DNA of 64,000 bases, from positions 1 to 64,000 of the IMG/VR virus record IMGVR_UViG_3300032249_000542. One strand, 5' to 3'. This DNA comes from a virus. The notes beneath the pieces were generated by a model, which was not told the origin of the DNA, did no database searches, and worked only from the letters and a program-made list of their open reading frames with translations. Positions 24,607 to 60,864 of this stretch are shown here, one piece after another; position 1 is the stretch's first letter, and every line of letters begins with the position of its first letter. A program made the position numbers and the translations under genes.

Positions 24607-24614
24607 TATAAATA
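24607..24614 (+). promoter_or_regulatory. T4-type late promoter
   Basis: Exact TATAAATA, 5 nt before the leader ATG. Confidence 0.75.
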
Positions 24615-24619
24615 AAAGT

Positions 24620-24718
24620 ATGAACAAAATCCTCTCTACAATTAGTAAGCAACATACCCCGATGACGAATTGGTCAGAGGGCTATTGCGCTCGCAGTTTT
24701 GATGGGGGTTTTGTATAG
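24620..24718 (+). CDS. putative attenuator leader peptide (32 aa, all 20 amino acids)
   Basis: MNKILSTISKQHTPMTNWSEGYCARSFDGGFV*; its last codons and stop form the antiterminator arm. Confidence 0.7.
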   Translation: MNKILSTISKQHTPMTNWSEGYCARSFDGGFV

Positions 24719-24755
24719 TAGGCTAATGTAATCTTATAGTCTCTATACAAAACCC
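24706..24755 (+). promoter_or_regulatory. antiterminator hairpin
   Basis: GGGTTTTGTATAG (24706-18) pairs perfectly with CTATACAAAACCC (24743-55); extended by AGGCTA/TAGTCT. Confidence 0.75.
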
Positions 24756-24785
24756 GAATCTAACCAGTTCGGGTTTTTTGTTTTT
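24749..24785 (+). terminator. intrinsic terminator immediately upstream of the first tRNA
   Basis: AAAACCCGAA-loop-TTCGGGTTTT followed by TTGTTTTT. Confidence 0.8.
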
Positions 24786-24873
24786 GGAAGTGTGGCTGAG
24801 TGGTTTAAGGCAGCGGTCTTGAAAACCGTCGTATCGAAAGGTACCGTGAGTTCGAATCCCACCACTTCCGCCA
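24786..24873 (+). tRNA. tRNA-Ser(TGA)
   Basis: Cloverleaf, long variable arm, encoded CCA. Confidence 0.95.
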
Positions 24874-24878
24874 GTAAT

Positions 24879-24970
24879 GGAAATATGGCTGAGAGGCTTA
24901 AGGCAGCGGTTTGCTAAACCGTCGATCATGTTAAAATGGTCCGTTGGTTCGAATCCAACTATTTCCGCCA
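24879..24970 (+). tRNA. tRNA-Ser(GCT)
   Basis: Cloverleaf, long variable arm, CCA. Confidence 0.95.
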
Positions 24971-24975
24971 GTTAT

Positions 24976-25053
24976 GGTTAGGTGGCTGAGTGGTCCAAAG
25001 CAGCAGTCTGCAAAACTGTAAAACCGTCGGTTCAAATCCGACCCTAACCTCCA
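24976..25053 (+). tRNA. tRNA-Cys(GCA)
   Basis: Cloverleaf, U73 discriminator, CCA. Confidence 0.95.
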
Positions 25054-25087: not shown

Positions 25088-25263
25088 TGTTGTATTTACG
25101 CAACAAACTAATTGTTGACATATAGCGGGTCTTTTGATATAATAGATTTTGTTGAGTTGATAGAGAAAAAGAAAAAAGTGTTGTTTTTATACAACAAACT
25201 AATTGAAATAAGTTGTTGACATATAGCGGGTCTTTTGATATAATAGATTTTGTTGAGTTGATA
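25088..25263 (+). promoter_or_regulatory. tandem duplicated early sigma70 promoters, each with the upstream palindrome
   Basis: 51-nt exact direct repeat (25112-25162, 25213-25263), each TTGACA-17-TATAAT; palindromes at 25088 and 25179. Confidence 0.85.
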
Positions 25264-25273
25264 AAGAAAAAAA

Positions 25274-25433
25274 ACAGACAAGTGCGGTCTGTCTCTGTAA
25301 AGAGTTAAGCAAGGGTTTGGTGCAGTAATGACTTCGGCACCATGTAATAGTCAGTTCCTTGTTAGCATTAGATCAGATGGTAGGCAACTACCCAATGGTT
25401 GTAGGTGACGATGGGCTTTATAGGAACCTTCAA
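25274..25433 (+). ncRNA. unknown structured RNA, copy 1
   Basis: Stems, GNRA loops and pseudoknots covary with copy 2. Confidence 0.7.
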
Positions 25434-25446
25434 GATTTTAAAAAAA

Positions 25447-25638
25447 ACGGAAATGAGCAATCCGTCTCTGAAAAGAGTTTAACAAGGGTGTGGTGCGTTA
25501 ATACTGCTTCGGCATCACGTAATAGCGATCCTTGTTAATGTTCGAGATCAAACGGCATAGGAAATACTACACAAGTTTGTGTAGTACGTAGCTATGACAA
25601 TGGTTGTAGGTGACGATGGGATTCTATAGGAACCTTCA
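25447..25638 (+). ncRNA. unknown structured RNA, copy 2
   Basis: Same architecture with compensatory changes and one extended hairpin. Confidence 0.7.
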
Positions 25639-25688
25639 GATTATTATCGGTTGTGGGTATACGGGTACAGGAACCCTCAAGAATTTAT

Positions 25689-25763
25689 GCACCGTTCGTC
25701 TATCGGTTAGGACCCCGCCCTTTCACGGCGGTAAGAGGAGTTCGATTCTCCTACGGTGTACCA
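25689..25763 (+). tRNA. tRNA-Glu(TTC)
   Basis: Cloverleaf, CCA. Confidence 0.95.
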
Positions 25764-25819
25764 GTTTATTTTTTAGGAGAGTCCATTATGGACAGCGATA
25801 AGAGTATTAACAAAACGAA

Positions 25820-25895
25820 GGAGCTATAGTCAAACGGTTAAGACAGCGGACTTTTAATCCGTCAGGTCAGGGTTCGAATCCCTGTGGCTCCACCA
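25820..25895 (+). tRNA. tRNA-Lys(TTT)
   Basis: Cloverleaf, CCA. Confidence 0.95.
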
Positions 25896-26002
25896 TAGTA
25901 AAGCATATTTCAGGTTGGACTATTTCTAGAATAGTTATTTGGGTCGGTAGATGGGATTTGATGCCTAATCGAGACTAAGATACGGAGTATGCTTTACTAT
26001 GG
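25893..26002 (+). ncRNA. long-stem hairpin element starting at the tRNA-Lys CCA
   Basis: CCATAGTAAAGCATATT / AGTATGCTTTACTATGG 17-bp stem. Confidence 0.55.
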
Positions 26003-26008
26003 TTCAGA

Positions 26009-26082
26009 TGGGAATTGGTGAAATGGTATCACACCGGATTTTGATTCCGAGGTTGTAAGTTCGATCCTTACATTCCCTGCCA
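26009..26082 (+). tRNA. tRNA-Gln(TTG)
   Basis: Cloverleaf, U1:U72 mismatch, CCA. Confidence 0.9.
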
Positions 26083-26086
26083 TCTA

Positions 26087-26362
26087 TAATTAGACGGTAT
26101 GTTTGAGTTCTGCAAACTCCTAGAGTTAATTGTGGTTGACTTGCATACCGTGACAATCTAATGAGTTCATCCAGTATGAATAGTTAGGCATTAGTTTTTA
26201 CTTGAGTTATGGCAAGTGGTCCATAAACAGGAGTGTAACCTGATAGGCATAGAAAATAAATGCTTAACGTGATGAGCCAGTTTTGACCGTGGGCTTTAGG
26301 CAAGAAACACATAAGAAAACGGCAGGCGCTAAACAAGATTACAATCGCCTAGGTAATCAAGA
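26087..26362 (+). ncRNA. unknown multi-domain structured RNA (~275 nt)
   Basis: No ORF; about ten stems and a 3' H-type pseudoknot; lies between two tRNAs. Confidence 0.6.
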
Positions 26363-26366
26363 ATAT

Positions 26367-26441
26367 GGTTCCAAAGTGTTCATGGACGCACGTATGCCTG
26401 TCACGCATAAAGAAGGGGATCGTTACCCCTTGGGACCGCCA
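26367..26441 (+). tRNA. tRNA-Asp(GTC)
   Basis: Cloverleaf, G73, CCA; atypical T loop ATCGTTA. Confidence 0.9.
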
Positions 26442-26467
26442 AAGTATTTTTAACTGATGGAGATAAA

Positions 26468-26656
26468 ATGAGTAAAGTTTACTTAGGTCGTTTTAATCAG
26501 TATAAAGTTGGCACTAGAATTGCCACTGGTATGAAAGAAGCAAAGTTTTATCAACGTGGTTATATGTTGATGAGCGGTAAAGAATATAAGATTGAAAAAT
26601 TAAACAAGATTGTCCGAGTGTGGCACGATATTGATGAAGGTTTTATTGTAGTATAA
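26468..26656 (+). CDS. hypothetical protein within the tRNA array
   Basis: GGAG RBS. Confidence 0.6.
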   Translation: MSKVYLGRFNQYKVGTRIATGMKEAKFYQRGYMLMSGKEYKIEKLNKIVRVWHDIDEGFIVV

Positions 26657-26664
26657 AATTCTAT

Positions 26665-26740
26665 TCCGAGATAGCTCAGCGGTAGTAGCAGTTGACTGTT
26701 AATCAATTGGTCGTAGGTTCGATCCCTACTCTCGGAGCCA
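26665..26740 (+). tRNA. tRNA-Asn(GTT)
   Basis: Cloverleaf, CCA. Confidence 0.95.
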
Positions 26741-26748
26741 GTTTCAAT

Positions 26749-26833
26749 GGAGATGCGGCGCAGTTGGAGAGGCGCGGCTGACTGTAAATCAGTTCTTTCG
26801 GGTGAGTAGGTTCGAATCTTACCATCTCCACCA
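26749..26833 (+). tRNA. tRNA-Tyr(GTA)
   Basis: Cloverleaf with variable arm, CCA. Confidence 0.95.
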
Positions 26834-26835
26834 AT

Positions 26836-26910
26836 GGTGTCTATAGTGTAGTGGAAGCATTGCTCTCTGTGAAAGAGTAGGTACGGGGTCGGTACCCGTT
26901 AGACACCCCA
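26836..26910 (+). tRNA. tRNA-His(GTG)
   Basis: G-1:C73, CCA; atypical T loop GTCGGTA. Confidence 0.9.
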
Positions 26911-26913
26911 AGG

Positions 26914-26970
26914 TTAAGTTTACAATGGCAGCATTTTAAGTTTACAATGGTAGCGTTTTAAGTTTACAAT
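26914..26970 (+). repeat. 22-nt tandem repeat, about 2.6 copies
   Basis: TTAAGTTTACAATGGYAGCRTT x2 plus TTAAGTTTACAAT. Confidence 0.85.
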
Positions 26971-27045
26971 CGGTCTTTAGTAAAATGGATATTACGGTTG
27001 GCTACGAACCAGCAAGTGGGAGTTCGATTCTCTCAGGACCGGCCA
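26971..27045 (+). tRNA. tRNA-Arg(ACG)
   Basis: Cloverleaf, CCA. Confidence 0.92.
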
Positions 27046-27112
27046 TAATGAAATACATTTCGATGCTGTTCCGCGGCAGCGACCAAAAAGAGAGAAGTGT
27101 ATTTCATTATGG
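27043..27112 (+). ncRNA. long-stem hairpin element starting at the tRNA-Arg CCA
   Basis: CCATAATGAAATACATTT / AAGTGTATTTCATTATGG 18-bp stem. Confidence 0.55.
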
Positions 27113-27185
27113 TAATGTAGCACAGCGGTAGTGCAGCTCCTTCATACGGAGTTGGTCGGGAGTTCGAATCTCTCCATTACCACCA
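27111..27185 (+). tRNA. tRNA-Met(CAT), elongator-like
   Basis: Cloverleaf, G1-C72, CCA. Confidence 0.85.
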
Positions 27186-27187
27186 AT

Positions 27188-27263
27188 GCCGATTTAGCTC
27201 ATCAGGTAGAGCAGTTGATTTGTAATCATCAGGTGGTGGGTTCGAGTCCTGCAATCGGCACCA
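27188..27263 (+). tRNA. tRNA-Thr(TGT)
   Basis: Cloverleaf, CCA. Confidence 0.95.
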
Positions 27264-27271
27264 GAATTTAT

Positions 27272-27348
<77 letters not shown>

Positions 27349-27356
27349 GTATTAAT

Positions 27357-27432
27357 GGGGGTGTAGCTCAGCTGGGAGAGCGGTTGCTTTGCAAGCAATA
27401 GGTAGCGGGTTCGAGTCCTGTCACCTCCACCA
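27357..27432 (+). tRNA. tRNA-Ala(TGC)
   Basis: G3:U70, CCA. Confidence 0.95.
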
Positions 27433-27434
27433 AT

Positions 27435-27509
27435 GCCGATTTAGCTCAGTGGTAGAGCACCGTCTTGATAAGGCGGGGGTCCTTGGATCGTTCCCAAGAA
27501 TCGGTACCA
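27435..27509 (+). tRNA. tRNA-Ile(GAT)
   Basis: Cloverleaf, CCA; atypical T loop ATCGTTC. Confidence 0.9.
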
Positions 27510-27516
27510 GTTTTAT

Positions 27517-27592
27517 TGCGGGTTAGGGAAGTGGTCATCCCGTTAGGCTCATAACCTGAAGATCGTTGGTTCGAATCCATCACCCGCAACCA
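27517..27592 (+). tRNA. tRNA-Met(CAT), initiator-like
   Basis: TGCGGGT acceptor with weak 1:72 pair; GGCTCATAACC anticodon arm. Confidence 0.8.
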
Positions 27593-27605
27593 ACAAAGGT
27601 GAACT

Positions 27606-28076
27606 ATGAAAAAAGTTATTGACATTGACGAAGTAAAAGAGTATATTAGTCATTGTGGTCCAGATACTAAGATTTATCTTGGTGCGGACTCTGAACGATT
27701 TCAGATAGGTAAAGAATGGTTCGCCGATTATATTTTAGTTGTCGTTATACATATTGATGGATGCCATGGTTGTAAAATCTTTGGTTCTGTTGAGCGTGAG
27801 CGAGACTATGAGGTAAAGAAAAGTAAACCACGTATGCGTTTAATGAACGAGGTTTATAAAGTTGCTGACTTGTATTTGAAAATGGCAGATATACTTGAGG
27901 ATTTTGAAGTCGAGGTTCACCTTGATATCAACCCAAGTGAGATGCATGGTTCAAGTTGCGTTATTAATGAAGCGATAGGTTACATTCGTGGTATGTGTAA
28001 TGTTATACCACTTGTAAAACCAAAAGCATTCGCAGCAAGTTATGCAGCAGATAGATATAAAAGTTTTGCAGGTTAA
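27606..28076 (+). CDS. RNase H-like YkuK-family protein
   Basis: IYLGADS, RLMNEV, EVHLDIN, KPKAFAASYAAD. Confidence 0.8.
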   Translation: MKKVIDIDEVKEYISHCGPDTKIYLGADSERFQIGKEWFADYILVVVIHIDGCHGCKIFGSVERERDYEVKKSKPRMRLMNEVYKVADLYLKMADILEDFEVEVHLDINPSEMHGSSCVINEAIGYIRGMCNVIPLVKPKAFAASYAADRYKSFAG

Positions 28077-28077
28077 T

Positions 28078-28153
28078 GCGGGAATAGCTCAGTTGGTAGA
28101 GCGTGTGCTTGCCAAGCATAAGGTCGAGAGTTCGAGTCTCTTTTTCCGCTCCA
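28078..28153 (+). tRNA. tRNA-Gly(GCC)
   Basis: Cloverleaf, U73, CCA. Confidence 0.95.
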
Positions 28154-28157
28154 GTAT

Positions 28158-28231
28158 TACGGTGTGGCGTAGTGGCAGCGCAGGAGTCTCCAAAACTCTT
28201 AGTGGGGGTTCGATTCCCTCCACCGTAGCCA
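28158..28231 (+). tRNA. tRNA-Trp(CCA)
   Basis: Cloverleaf, G73, CCA. Confidence 0.95.
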
Positions 28232-28239
28232 AGTTTAAT

Positions 28240-28313
28240 GCGGGATTAGTTTAATGGTAAAACGAAAGCCTTCCAAGCTCTAGTCATCAGTTCGATTCTG
28301 ATATCCCGCTCCA
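28240..28313 (+). tRNA. tRNA-Gly(TCC)
   Basis: Cloverleaf, CCA. Confidence 0.95.
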
Positions 28314-28321
28314 AGTTTTAT

Positions 28322-28396
28322 GCACCGTTAGCTCAGCGGTAGAGCAACTCCCTTACAAGGAGAAGGTCTGCGGTTCGATCCCGTGACGGTGTACCA
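28322..28396 (+). tRNA. tRNA-Val(TAC)
   Basis: Cloverleaf, CCA. Confidence 0.95.
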
Positions 28397-28397
28397 T

Positions 28398-28473
28398 GCT
28401 ACTTTAGCTGATGTGGTCATAGCGGCGGTTTGAAGAACCGTTGAACGTGGTTCGATTCCACGAGGTAGCACCA
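28398..28473 (+). tRNA. tRNA-Phe(GAA)
   Basis: Cloverleaf, CCA. Confidence 0.92.
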
Positions 28474-28479
28474 AGTTAT

Positions 28480-28556
28480 GCGCTGGTGACGGAACTGGTA
28501 TACGTGTTGGTCTTAGAAACCAAATTTTAGGAGTTCGACTCTCCTCTGGCGCACCA
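28480..28556 (+). tRNA. tRNA-Leu(TAG), short variable loop
   Basis: 77-nt cloverleaf; variable loop is only ATTTT. Confidence 0.9.
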
Positions 28557-28557
28557 T

Positions 28558-28634
28558 GGGCCTTAAGCATAAGTGGTATAGGCAACCGACTCATAATCGG
28601 TAGACAGTTGGTTCGAATCCAACAAGGCCCACCA
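28558..28634 (+). tRNA. tRNA-Ile2(CAT), lysidine type
   Basis: GGGCCTT acceptor; CGACTCATAATCG anticodon arm as in bacterial Ile2. Confidence 0.8.
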
Positions 28635-28636
28635 AT

Positions 28637-28711
28637 CTGGCGTTAGTTCAATGGATAGAACAGTAGCCTTCTAAGCTATAAATGCAGGTTCGATTCCTGC
28701 ACGCCGGACCA
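28637..28711 (+). tRNA. tRNA-Arg(TCT)
   Basis: Cloverleaf, CCA. Confidence 0.95.
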
Positions 28712-43010: not shown

Positions 43011-43179
43011 TATATAATATGAGTCTAATTGGAGATTATTATGAATGAAGAAAAGAAAGAACGTGACTATAGCAAGATGACCAAGGGCGATTACTATTGG
43101 GATAAGTTTATGAGTGTTATGTGGTTATTATTCATTGTCTCAATCGTCTCTGGTGGCTTCTATAGGTAAAGAATTGTTG

Positions 43180-43439
43180 TAACCCCTTCAAAGCGAAGGC
43201 ATGTTGGACGAGGGTTCGATTCCCTCCATCTCCACCAGAAGCATATTGTGTAGTGTGTTTCTGATGGGGATGACCTGGTTTCGACAGCGTGAGATAGTGG
43301 AGACGGCAACACGGTAGGCGATGACCGTTAATCAAGCAAAACTACAAATGCAAATGACGCATTTTATGGTGAAGATCGCCTAGCAGCGTAACTCACTTGG
43401 GGTTTCGGGAGTGTCCTTATTAACCAATCACTCCCACCA
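43180..43439 (+). ncRNA. ssrA: circularly permuted (two-piece) tmRNA
   Basis: T-arm and CATCTCCACCA end at 43237; GGGGATG starts at 43266 and pairs with it, giving G3:U70; tag ANDAFYGEDRLAA* at 43350-43391; outer ends approximate. Confidence 0.9.
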
Positions 43440-43452
43440 AATTCTATATATT

Positions 43453-44136
43453 ATGAAAATCTATAAATCAAATTATCGTAATCATTGGGTTTCTCCATAC
43501 GTTATACTGGAGAAGGTTTTCTTTTGGCGTGAAATTGATTACGATGAACCACTTATCAAAAAACTTTCCGATTTTCTCGATCCGTTTTCCGTAGCATGGC
43601 TAAAGTTTCTTGACTTTGTACATCCACGTATCAACTATGTGAAGATTGACCGTTATGATACATGGTCAATGGATTCTACATTAGCTGATATCATTCTACC
43701 GATGCTGAAGCAGATGAAAGCAACAAAGCATGGTTCACCAACGGTTGATGATGATGATTTGCCAGAAGAACTGCGTGTTGTTGCACACAAAGATTGGTCG
43801 CAACAACTTGCATTTGAATTTGATGACCATGAACAATACGAAAAGGATTCGTGGGATTTGCAACATCGTCGTTGGGAATGGGTTCTCGATGAGATGATTT
43901 TTGCCTTTGAACACTATGTTGATGATACATGGGAAGAAGCATTCCGTTCAGGTGAACATGATATGATACATGTGCCATGCGAATGGTATGAAGATGGCAG
44001 ACCCAAACTTTACTCAATTGAAAAAGGACCGAACGATACCTACGTATGCGACTATGAAGGTATGAATAAAGTATACAAACGAATGGAGAATGGATTCTGT
44101 TTGTTTGGTAAGTATTACAGAGGACTGTGGGACTAA
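43453..44136 (+). CDS. conserved phage hypothetical protein
   Basis: DTWSMD.TLA.II.PML...FGKYY..LWD. Confidence 0.75.
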   Translation: MKIYKSNYRNHWVSPYVILEKVFFWREIDYDEPLIKKLSDFLDPFSVAWLKFLDFVHPRINYVKIDRYDTWSMDSTLADIILPMLKQMKATKHGSPTVDDDDLPEELRVVAHKDWSQQLAFEFDDHEQYEKDSWDLQHRRWEWVLDEMIFAFEHYVDDTWEEAFRSGEHDMIHVPCEWYEDGRPKLYSIEKGPNDTYVCDYEGMNKVYKRMENGFCLFGKYYRGLWD

Positions 44137-52863: not shown

Positions 52864-53441
52864 TAGAATTTTTCCTCTGATTCTGCGAATACTTGATTTT
52901 TAGATGCCTTTGCAAAGTTCTCCATTGGTAACAATGCAGCAATATCCCATTCGTTTGCATCGATTTGTACGAATTTGGATTGAATGTGTTTATACAAATA
53001 TTTCTTTAGACAAGGAGTGTGTTCGTATATTCTTGAAGTGTTTTTAAGGTAATGGTAATTTACTCTTAATCTGGTACTTGCATCATAACGGTTGTTCGTA
53101 TTTGTTTCACTCAACTTGTCTAAAAATATTAATCTTTGTCTCGGACGAATGTAATGCAGATTCAATCCAAGGAACCCATCGCCATGTTCTTCAATAGGTA
53201 TGACTAAAGGAAACTTGTCATAGTATTTCATAAACTCTTTAGTCTTTGGATCGTAGTAATAGAAATACATATTACCTACAATTGAACTATCCCTCAGTCT
53301 AGGTTTATCTTCCATCAGTCTAGTCCTTGACGGATTTAGACTTTTGACTTTAGATTGTAACCACGCACGAGCTTTTTCAGTACGAGGTGCCAATCCCTCA
53401 TTTCTTAAAGACTTTTCTATTCGATTTATTAAGTATGCCAT
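52863..53441 (-). CDS. 2: DNA end protector gp2
   Basis: YDPKTK...YYD.FPL...GLNLHY. Confidence 0.9.
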   Translation of the reverse strand: MAYLINRIEKSLRNEGLAPRTEKARAWLQSKVKSLNPSRTRLMEDKPRLRDSSIVGNMYFYYYDPKTKEFMKYYDKFPLVIPIEEHGDGFLGLNLHYIRPRQRLIFLDKLSETNTNNRYDASTRLRVNYHYLKNTSRIYEHTPCLKKYLYKHIQSKFVQIDANEWDIAALLPMENFAKASKNQVFAESEEKF

Positions 53442-53453
53442 TGTCTATTTATC

Positions 53454-53885
53454 TCACAAACCAAGGTGTTTCTCAGTTATGATTTTAAATTCCCACCCAT
53501 TGTCTTTGCAGAATTCAATAGCCGCTTTCCACTTGGATTGGTTGACAATGTAAGTCATAGATTCCTGAATGTACTTTTTAGTCTGCCGTTTCTGCTCAGG
53601 TTTCTTGGTTTGAATCTCAGGTTTGACTTCAATCACATACGTCATAACGGTACCATCTTTGCGTTTCATCTTTGCCACAAAGTCTGGGAAATAACGATGT
53701 TTCTTATTGTCAATTGGATTGTAGTATGGTATAATAAGCTCTTCGGACGCCCACCAGATTACCTCCGGATGGTCGTCTAGATACTTCATTACACGTAGTT
53801 CCCACAGAGAACGGTAAATGACATTATTTGCATTTCCGTTGTATTTTGTAGGGTTCTTGGGTTTAAATGTTCCTTTGTATGACAT
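53454..53885 (-). CDS. 4: head completion nuclease gp4
   Basis: KY.G....YRSLWE, W.SEE, RYFPDF, IEVKP. Confidence 0.92.
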   Translation of the reverse strand: MSYKGTFKPKNPTKYNGNANNVIYRSLWELRVMKYLDDHPEVIWWASEELIIPYYNPIDNKKHRYFPDFVAKMKRKDGTVMTYVIEVKPEIQTKKPEQKRQTKKYIQESMTYIVNQSKWKAAIEFCKDNGWEFKIITEKHLGL

Positions 53886-59657: not shown

Positions 59658-60452
59658 ATGGGAACATTATTCGATTCTTTACAATTAAATTTTGATACAA
59701 CTAAGTTTGGTAACGCATTAGATCCAAGAGGGACTTTGCAAAGGGACATAATTCTGAGTTCTCCTCCTTTGACTAAATGGCAGTATGATGCTGTTGCTAC
59801 AAATAATGTGGATAGAACAACTTATTTAAAAAATCCACTGGCAAATGTAGTTAATAACATCATCTCAACTGCAAACACACTTTATATAACAACAAATACA
59901 TATGCATACTTACCTAATGCAAACAGTTCTGTTTATAATTTAGAAATTGCAGCTAATAATTTTTTTAGGCATTCTCAAAGAATATCCGGATTAGAAGTTT
60001 CCACTAATAGTGCTTTACCTGATTTCTTTTCAGCAACAAGTTACGGTAGAAGTGTGTTTCCAATTTTTAGTAAATTTGAGGGTGTATCGAACAACAGTCC
60101 TATTTTAGGAAGTATGACAAGTCTGTTTGTAGAATCCGATCTATTAACTTATTCCGTAAGTTTGGAAGCTGCAAAAATAGAATTACAAAATAGTTTAGTT
60201 TCCTCAGGATTTCCAACAGTTACATATTCTTCAAATTTATCTTCAATTAGAATATCTGAAATATGTAACTTAATAAATTCTGCTGCATCATTTATGAATA
60301 CCAGAAGAACACATGATGTGAATTTCTTTGGAAGATTATTGCAGGTATCAAATAATTATATGGAGATTTCTCGTTATTCTGGATTTGCCGATATTGAGGC
60401 TCATTTAATTAGTAATTACATTGGTACAGACACTTTAAAAAATAACCTATAA
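59658..60452 (+). CDS. hypothetical virion protein
   Basis: 264-aa ORF in the baseplate operon. Confidence 0.65.
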   Translation: MGTLFDSLQLNFDTTKFGNALDPRGTLQRDIILSSPPLTKWQYDAVATNNVDRTTYLKNPLANVVNNIISTANTLYITTNTYAYLPNANSSVYNLEIAANNFFRHSQRISGLEVSTNSALPDFFSATSYGRSVFPIFSKFEGVSNNSPILGSMTSLFVESDLLTYSVSLEAAKIELQNSLVSSGFPTVTYSSNLSSIRISEICNLINSAASFMNTRRTHDVNFFGRLLQVSNNYMEISRYSGFADIEAHLISNYIGTDTLKNNL

Positions 60453-60455
60453 ATA
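60448..60455 (+). promoter_or_regulatory. T4-type late promoter
   Basis: TATAAATA, 4 nt before the gp25 ATG. Confidence 0.75.
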
Positions 60456-60459
60456 GAAG

Positions 60460-60864
60460 ATGGCAACCACATTTACAAACGTAACAAGACAATACAGAGA
60501 CTTGGATTTGAATTTTAATATTCATCCAGTCCGTAAAGACATCAATAAAACTGTTGGTGATATGGCGGTTATTAACTCCATCAAGAATTTGATTTCCACA
60601 AACAATTATGAGAGATTATTTAATCCTACGTTTGGTGGAAATATCAGAGCACTATTGTTTGAAAATATGGATCCTGTGACTGCTCTTAGGATGGAAAAAG
60701 AAATAACTAAAATGGTTGAGAATTATGAACCTCGTGTAATTCTTAGTTCAATAACTATTGTTCCTCAATATGAAAACAATGCGTATGATGTCAAGATTAA
60801 GTTTCGTATTGTTAATCGTCCAGAACCGATACAAATTACATTTCAATTAGAGCGACTACGATAA
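60460..60864 (+). CDS. 25: baseplate wedge gp25
   Basis: Y.DLDL.F..HP; ER.F.P.FG; YEPRV. Confidence 0.92.
   Translation: MATTFTNVTRQYRDLDLNFNIHPVRKDINKTVGDMAVINSIKNLISTNNYERLFNPTFGGNIRALLFENMDPVTALRMEKEITKMVENYEPRVILSSITIVPQYENNAYDVKIKFRIVNRPEPIQITFQLERLR

Follow-up and report, generated by a model that had tools for sequence, protein, structure and literature searches.

The window analysed here comprises 64,000 nucleotides (nt), the first 64 kb of the 169,777-bp IMG/VR virus record IMGVR_UViG_3300032249_000542, which has terminal repeats and a G+C content of 36.8%. Among its genes are those for T4-type baseplate proteins and a ribonucleotide reductase. In a comparison of the gp6-like wedge protein, the nearest cultured relatives were Methylophilales phage Melnitz and Pelagibacter phage HTVC008M, about 38% identical in amino-acid sequence. 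Given the T4-type proteins and this low identity, the source genome is best assigned to an uncultured, distant T4-like myovirus. ARAGORN identified in it 25 transfer RNA (tRNA) genes, covering all 20 amino acids, and one transfer-messenger RNA (tmRNA). Our subject is an element of about 165 nt directly upstream of the tRNA array, in which a short open reading frame (ORF) ends in the first of two alternative hairpins, the other being a terminator. The features of the locus are as follows.

24607 to 24614, plus strand: late-promoter-like box TATAAATA, 5 nt ahead of the ATG, seen in the sequence; it may also be read as a −10 box TATAAA.
24620 to 24718, plus strand: leader ORF of 32 codons, translated as MNKILSTISKQHTPMTNWSEGYCARSFDGGFV and ended by a stop; all 20 amino acids, 29 distinct codons.
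24654 to 24685, plus strand: hairpin internal to the ORF in minimum-energy folds, taking in the single Trp codon (24671–24673).
24706 to 24755, plus strand: helix A, the putative antiterminator hairpin, a perfect 13-bp helix of a 5' arm (24706–24718) and a 3' arm (24743–24755).
About 24720 to 24728 with 24735 to 24742, plus strand: extension of helix A, predicted by folding.
24749 to 24785, plus strand: intrinsic terminator found by terminator scan, with the stem-loop at 24749–24777 and the U-tract at 24774–24785.
24786 to 25053, plus strand: genes for tRNA-Ser(UGA), tRNA-Ser(GCU) and tRNA-Cys(GCA), the first after the terminator (ARAGORN, Rfam tRNA matches).
25115 to 25244, plus strand: two copies of the consensus σ70 promoter TTGACA-17-TATAAT (promoter scan, 12 of 12 matches each).
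25689 to 28711, plus strand: the remaining 22 tRNA genes of the array, which together with the first three cover all 20 amino acids (ARAGORN).

An earlier note, made from the letters of this DNA alone, had proposed that the element is an attenuator whose leader peptide contains every amino acid, and all sequence features on which it relied were recovered in place. The ATG at 24620 lies five bases past TATAAATA and is not preceded by a Shine-Dalgarno motif; the ORF encodes 20 different amino acids with 29 of its 32 codons distinct; its last codons together with the stop codon TAG (GGGTTTTGTATAG, 24706–24718) are perfectly complementary to CTATACAAAACCC (24743–24755); and the T-run of the terminator stops at 24785, immediately before tRNA-Ser(UGA), which begins at 24786. 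When 32 codons were drawn from the coding usage of this genome, all 20 residues were reached in 2.4e-4 of draws, and the leader is the only one of the 544 ATG ORFs of 25–40 amino acids in the 170-kb genome with this property. Mononucleotide-shuffled genomes contain on average 0.67 such ORFs; hence the window alone is only suggestive, and here the full coverage might be a lucky find. The significance of the property comes from its retention in relatives.

Relatives were collected in several ways. Loci around a 156-amino-acid protein encoded in the tRNA array yielded 80 IMG/VR contigs, several of which contain a very similar terminator adjoining the first tRNA gene and preceded by a homologous short ORF; that of one relative, MNKLAHITKECPQYRTFSDNGSWAPASEVCV, again has all 20 amino acids. 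Two pattern scans restricted to the bases of the hairpin and the terminator added 94 contigs. A subsequent profile search gave 120 matches representing 83 distinct elements, and a scan of metagenomes provided the sub-clade of the window itself, six contigs with five distinct sequences. The window matches the family model with 85.1 bits (E = 5e-24) in nhmmer and with 43.1 bits (E = 6e-7) as a covariance model. The survey of relatives that the earlier note had proposed thus showed that upstream of tRNA arrays a short ORF is conserved whose amino acids and codons are maximally diverse. For all 80 distinct elements with available downstream sequence, a tRNA gene begins 1–535 nt after the terminator, mostly within 100 nt, and the arrays behind it comprise up to 26 tRNAs within 3 kb. 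The contigs from the pattern scans were not chosen for tRNAs, so the collection itself does not impose this linkage. The genome of the window contains a single copy of the element, and there tRNA-Ser starts at position +1 after the terminator. The ORF is intact in every untruncated homologue except L154, which has no full-length ATG ORF, despite indels and high divergence. The sub-clade of the window is itself divergent: its leaders belong to the shortest class (32 codons), the TATAAATA late-type box stands in place of a σ70 promoter, and the terminator adjoins tRNA-Ser. The order tRNA-Ser(UGA), tRNA-Ser(GCU), tRNA-Cys(GCA) after the element is also kept in its contigs.

Searches in other directions were less productive. 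DNA and peptide searches of cultured phages gave only tRNA or chance matches, and an exact pattern derived from the terminator of the window matched no viral contig. The 89-amino-acid protein encoded upstream of the element was discarded as a guide to relatives, as it led to a single relative (58% identity) without an adjoining tRNA array. The hairpin-terminator pattern is essentially absent from 185,579 genomes of prokaryote species, with one match, L180 (6816–6944), rejected as unrelated: no tRNA follows, and its candidate ORFs are leucine-rich, with 16 residue types in the 32-amino-acid reading and 19 only in the longest one, of 57 amino acids. This match follows a σ70 promoter on a 159-kb contig binned as a metagenome-assembled genome of 'uncultured Pseudomonadales'; it is probably a small-gene cassette of another kind, and the contig may be a mis-binned phage. 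The metagenome match L181, which has neither the ORF property nor tRNAs, was also placed outside the family.

The family provides 67 distinct full-length leader peptides of 31–46 amino acids. All 20 residues are present in 47 of them, 19 in 17 and 18 in three. Depending on the length, the chance of containing all 20 is 0.003–0.7% under the amino-acid usage of this genome, 0.2–8.6% under uniform usage and 0.03–2.6% under the pooled composition of the family itself. Clustering at 70% identity resulted in 24 clusters, 18 of them with mostly all-20 members; at 40% identity, all-20 members occur in six of eight clusters. When residues were shuffled within alignment columns of the main clade, 4.4 ± 1.8 of the 44 peptides stayed all-20, whereas the observed number is 31, a value not attained in any of 2000 shuffles; this contrast is strong, and it should not be read as an exact probability because relatedness of the sequences inflates it. 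Peptide coverage, clustering and column shuffling together rule out chance as the source of the property.

Single-copy residues are retained while changing their places. At least 91% of the peptides contain exactly one Cys, and the same is true of His, Tyr, Glu, Asp and Trp; the number of alignment columns used is five for Cys, four for His and five for Tyr. Gln occurs exactly once in 75% of the peptides and in eight columns, and Val exactly once in 64% and in 11 columns. In the sub-clade of the window, the Cys of GYCAR (position 23) has been lost and a Cys gained at position 9 (IICKH), Gln and His have exchanged positions, and none of the five distinct peptides has lost any of the 20 residue types. 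Codon choice was compared with synonymous resampling by the codon usage of the window genome, the compared rows not being independent. Both Ser codon boxes are represented in 67 of 72 ORFs (50.5 ± 3.6 in resampled sets), both Arg boxes in 48 (29.2 ± 3.4) and both Leu boxes in 56 (47.4 ± 3.1), and the fraction of distinct codons is 0.832 against 0.751 ± 0.005. These patterns suggest that the leader ORF is under selection to hold at least one codon for every amino acid.

The ORF looks translated. For closely related ORFs, the synonymous/non-synonymous codon differences are 326/711 in frame and 147/941 and 78/960 in the other frames. Of 65 distinct upstream regions of relatives, 39 contain a σ70 promoter matching at least nine of 12 positions, and for 38 of these 39 the −10 box ends either 6–7 nt (29 cases) or 9–10 nt (nine cases) before the ATG. 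Such spacing puts the transcription start at the AUG or a few bases from it, so the mRNA in relatives should be leaderless. A Shine-Dalgarno-like AAGGA at the right distance was found in 10 of the other 26 regions. The box TATAAATA had been taken for a T4 late promoter; the motif is where it was described and is conserved in the sub-clade, but most relatives have a σ70 promoter in its place. The arrangement TATAAATA, 5 nt, ATG is kept in all six metagenome contigs (five distinct sequences) of the sub-clade and implies that the transcript of the window would be leaderless, too. No −35 box was found upstream of TATAAATA in the window. The exact octamer is not enriched (four occurrences in the window, 7.5 expected; seven across the whole genome); the motif that is enriched upstream of genes in this genome is (A/C)TAAATA(G). 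A late, leaderless transcript is plausible for the leader of the window, since the same motif-to-ATG geometry precedes gp25-like and gp2-like late genes.

This geometry deserves a separate remark. The motif (A/C)TAAATA followed by 4–7 nt and an ATG, with no Shine-Dalgarno sequence, stands before a gp25-like wedge gene, a gp2-like end protector gene and ORFs of 317–788 amino acids. Such sites were observed in the window at 60448–60462 (plus strand) and 53441–53458 (minus strand) and beyond it at G000:C1 66829, 99805, 103328 and 106959. Judging from these sites, many late mRNAs of the phage may be leaderless.

The segment AAAACCC (24749–24755) is common to the 5' arm of the terminator and the end of the 3' arm of helix A. 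In the window, enforcing helix A gives a fold of −51.7 kcal/mol and enforcing the terminator one of equal energy (−51.5 kcal/mol), and the unconstrained minimum (−51.8 kcal/mol) combines the terminator with a shortened helix A. The two helices had been described as mutually exclusive; this holds for the G-C core but not for the whole hairpin, as the minimum-energy fold demonstrates. A transcript cut at 24762, before the 3' arm of the terminator is made, folds as full helix A. When a ribosome footprint on the stop codon is held single-stranded, only the terminator forms in the fold of the window, whereas after a modelled stall at codon 12 helix A is formed and the terminator is absent. Compared with shuffled sequence, the folding of the leader is much more stable (z = −4.15). 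In some homologues helix A and in others the terminator prevails in the minimum-energy fold.

The architecture is constant in the family. AAAACCC plus 1–3 nt serves as both the 3' arm of helix A and the 5' arm of the terminator, and hardly any variation is seen in this segment or in its two G-run/U-run partners. All homologues have their stop codon within the 5' arm of helix A, 60–70 nt upstream of the end of the terminator. Both the antiterminator and the terminator stems covary, as the earlier note had anticipated. The columns of the MAFFT alignment at the terminator are out of register between clades; hence pairs were counted from sequence anchors. By these counts, helix A is 87% paired in register and 30–57% paired when slid by 1–3 nt, and the terminator 98% and 18–68%, respectively. 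Compensatory changes occur at four positions of the terminator stem; one of these is C-G in 34, G-C in 18 and A-U in 11 sequences, and another is U-A in 24, A-U in 22 and G-C in 20. In helix A, one position is U-A in 45 and G-C in 18 sequences, and another G-C in 47 and U-A in 18. Helix A was further assessed on a covariance-model alignment of 66 distinct sequences, which is fitted to the structure and hence leans towards this helix: 88.5% of its cells are paired (77.5 ± 0.7 in shuffles), 111 cells are changed on both sides (33 ± 5), and the covariation score is 0.316 compared to 0.144 in shuffles and 0.03–0.08 in slid registers, with none of 500 shuffles reaching the observed values. Applied to the full-length MAFFT alignment, RNAalifold found the terminator and, beyond it, nothing but a weak pairing between CACGCCC and the G-run. 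The latter might be a "1:2" helix, on which we do not rely given the poor alignment in this region. Finally, all 71 homologous ORFs contain a hairpin of at least 5 bp that ends at the Trp codon or close to it, with stem sequences that differ by clade. The predicted fold may act as an RNA polymerase pause or synchronising hairpin.

The conserved ORF, the covarying stems and the low chance of all-20 coverage lend support to the attenuator interpretation of the earlier note. The element is likely a ribosome-dependent leader-peptide attenuator, where translation to the stop codon would lead to termination and an upstream stall to read-through into the tRNA genes. What the sequences show is the ORF with its translation signals, the all-20 composition kept through turnover, two competing covarying helices and the invariable position before tRNA arrays; that ribosome position decides termination is inferred, as are the direction of the response and its physiological trigger. 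Transcription would start at or beside the AUG and produce a leaderless mRNA. A ribosome that finishes the 32 codons would sit on the stop codon and cover GGGTTTTGTATAG, the 5' arm of helix A; AAAACCC, being free, would then pair downstream as part of the terminator, and transcription would end just before tRNA-Ser. If a charged tRNA is scarce, the ribosome would stall at roughly codons 2–26 and helix A would form first, sequestering AAAACCC, so that no terminator arises and RNA polymerase enters the tRNA genes. The result would be a demand-driven, self-limiting supply of phage tRNAs.

With somewhat less confidence, though still on balance, we favour the more specific reading that the leaderless mini-ORF is a general sensor of decoding capacity, with codons for all amino acids and from both boxes of Ser, Arg and Leu, so that shortage of almost any charged tRNA would switch the array on. 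Such a shortage might be caused by codon-usage mismatch, by host shut-off or by host anticodon nucleases, the latter trigger being speculation.

Several observations weigh against this reading or narrow it. First, 20 of the 67 peptides (30%) are one or two residues short of the full set, with Val or Cys missing most frequently, and residues missing from a leader show no association with tRNAs missing from the array that follows (one joint case). Second, a stall at almost any codon had been expected to open the array. Most residues indeed could be sensed, but Val in the window and EVCV clades occurs only inside or at the masked arm, and Asp in the main clade only at its boundary, in line with the caveat of the earlier note that stalls in the last codons would mask the arm. 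Strictly counted, the sensing zone covers 17–19 of 20 residues; the sensed set is more likely 18–19 residues, which weakens the word "universal". Third, the array has other entry points. Only three tRNA genes separate the terminator of the window from the two strong σ70 promoters at 25115–25244, promoters that the earlier note had also pointed out for the downstream tRNAs and that probably form an independent entry point for the rest of the array. About 17 relatives have a σ70-like promoter between the terminator and the first tRNA gene. Since these promoters offer other routes to tRNA expression, the switch would modulate such expression rather than hold a monopoly over it. Fourth, the folds predict that without translation the antiterminator should win, that is, a default ON state unlike that of the trp attenuator. 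Fifth, W, R, AIE, D and GGF are positionally conserved in the peptides, so some peptide function is possible.

The alternative that survives best, in our view still an unlikely one, is a translation-coupled attenuator that reports ribosome availability, the global elongation rate, translation inhibitors or the host-to-phage translation switch rather than individual charged tRNAs; with so many different codons, the time taken for translation would be averaged over the whole tRNA pool. It draws on the same structural evidence, the default ON state without translation follows from the folds, and the response to a single shortage could be weak given that each amino acid occurs about once and never in runs. 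However, selection acts on every single residue, even if rare, and on the two codon boxes of Ser, of Arg and of Leu, which is more specific than a rate meter would need, and one hungry codon is sufficient to stall a ribosome.

A second alternative, which we regard as quite improbable, is a stand-alone small gene for a functional peptide of 31–46 residues with its own promoter and terminator, its position before tRNAs and the overlap of the stop codon with the hairpin having no regulatory role. The in-frame excess of synonymous changes, the conserved positions of the peptide and the promoter after the terminator in some relatives agree with it. On the other hand, from clade to clade the peptides diverge strongly, yet they retain the full set of residues, and single-copy residues move, which would be unexpected for a folded or binding peptide; the conserved peptide segments overlap conserved RNA helices; and in every case the stop-codon hairpin draws on the 5' arm of the terminator. 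Finally, there is very little probability that the frame is incidental and the RNA non-coding, a 5' leader or small RNA belonging to the tRNA precursor that acts in processing or stability or simply as the terminator of upstream genes: the folding z-score and weak, sub-threshold Rfam matches to small RNAs and leaders, driven by the terminator, fit it, but it leaves unexplained the all-20 coverage and codon-position effects, the ORF intact in all untruncated homologues except L154, and the ATG that keeps a constant spacing to the −10 box or follows a Shine-Dalgarno motif.

Further observations concern the tRNA arrays themselves. In the window, a repeat of about 100 bp at 25100–25260 holds both identical consensus σ70 promoters and is followed, before tRNA-Glu, by an ORF-poor, apparently structured stretch (25270–25680); a similar sequence (…AGCAAGGGTT…TTCGG…) is found in the relative L034 after the leader terminator and a promoter. 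Many relatives share a conserved sequence GTTCTTTAAAAATTTGCGTACCAAATG between the terminator and the first tRNA gene, about 45 nt before the first tRNA-Gln (L006, L009, L011, L015, L018, L021, L026 and L027; similar in L066, L070 and L074). It contains no obvious promoter and may be a signal for processing of the tRNA precursor. The arrays of related phages (L006–L085) are heavily rearranged in order and content, and several include a tRNA with the CUA anticodon, labelled 'Pyl' by ARAGORN, which may be an amber suppressor. The 156-amino-acid ORF used to collect relatives (PHROG 11311; window 27606–28076, plus strand) is embedded in the array. Its relatives occur inside tRNA arrays of very different phages, namely KVP40-like Vibrio phages, Stenotrophomonas DLP_6, Xanthomonas phages and roseophages; labelled as a ribonuclease in some records, it is a candidate tRNA-processing or repair factor. 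The tmRNA gene (window 43145–43482, plus strand) is permuted, that is, made of two pieces, with the tag ANDAFYGEDRLAA (ARAGORN).

To our knowledge, the regulation of phage tRNA genes is largely unknown, and the reason for the near-complete tRNA sets of some phages is still debated. A literature search, which did not span all journals, found no description of phage tRNA arrays preceded by an attenuator or a leader peptide, nor of a leader containing all amino acids. If the attenuator reading is true, this would be the first attenuator known for tRNA genes and the first responding to all amino acids, a viral homeostat of tRNA supply by which phages measure the decoding capacity of the host and provide tRNAs on demand. 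It would extend attenuation of the trp/his type to tRNA genes, to an input from any amino acid and to viruses with leaderless mRNAs. Being self-contained, only about 165 nt long and σ70-driven in most relatives, the element is directly testable in E. coli extracts or defined translation systems, and a compact reporter for limitation of tRNAs or amino acids, and for defence systems that target tRNAs, might be built from it.

Among known systems, the closest are leader-peptide attenuators of enterobacteria, such as trpL and hisL and the multivalent leaders thrL (Thr, Ile) and ilvL (Ile, Leu, Val). The element shares with them a promoter-proximal short ORF, a terminator before the regulated genes, an antiterminator that shares bases with the terminator and a ribosome as the presumed selector. 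As in these attenuators, the end of the ORF is placed so that, by geometry and constrained folding, a terminating ribosome would cover the 5' arm of the antiterminator. In contrast to them, the element has no runs of regulatory codons, each amino acid being present about once and the rare ones exactly once; it would regulate tRNAs and not biosynthetic enzymes, it is viral, its mRNA is apparently leaderless, and its stop codon lies inside the antiterminator arm. In an Rfam scan, the element scored below the thresholds for Thr_leader (RF00506; 27.2 bits, threshold 55) and Trp_leader (RF00513; 18.1 bits, threshold 41), with the alignment mostly on the terminator, and there was no T-box match. T-box riboswitches bind one specific uncharged tRNA directly and need neither a ribosome nor an ORF; like them, the element would respond to scarcity of charged tRNA by more read-through into translation-related genes via a choice between an antiterminator and a terminator. 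The E. coli pheST attenuator, with its runs of Phe codons, controls phenylalanyl-tRNA synthetase. Here, too, a gene of the translation apparatus is under leader-peptide attenuation, and the supply of a decoding component follows the speed of decoding; however, pheST is cellular, senses one amino acid and regulates a synthetase, whereas the phage element would sense nearly all amino acids and regulate the tRNA genes themselves.

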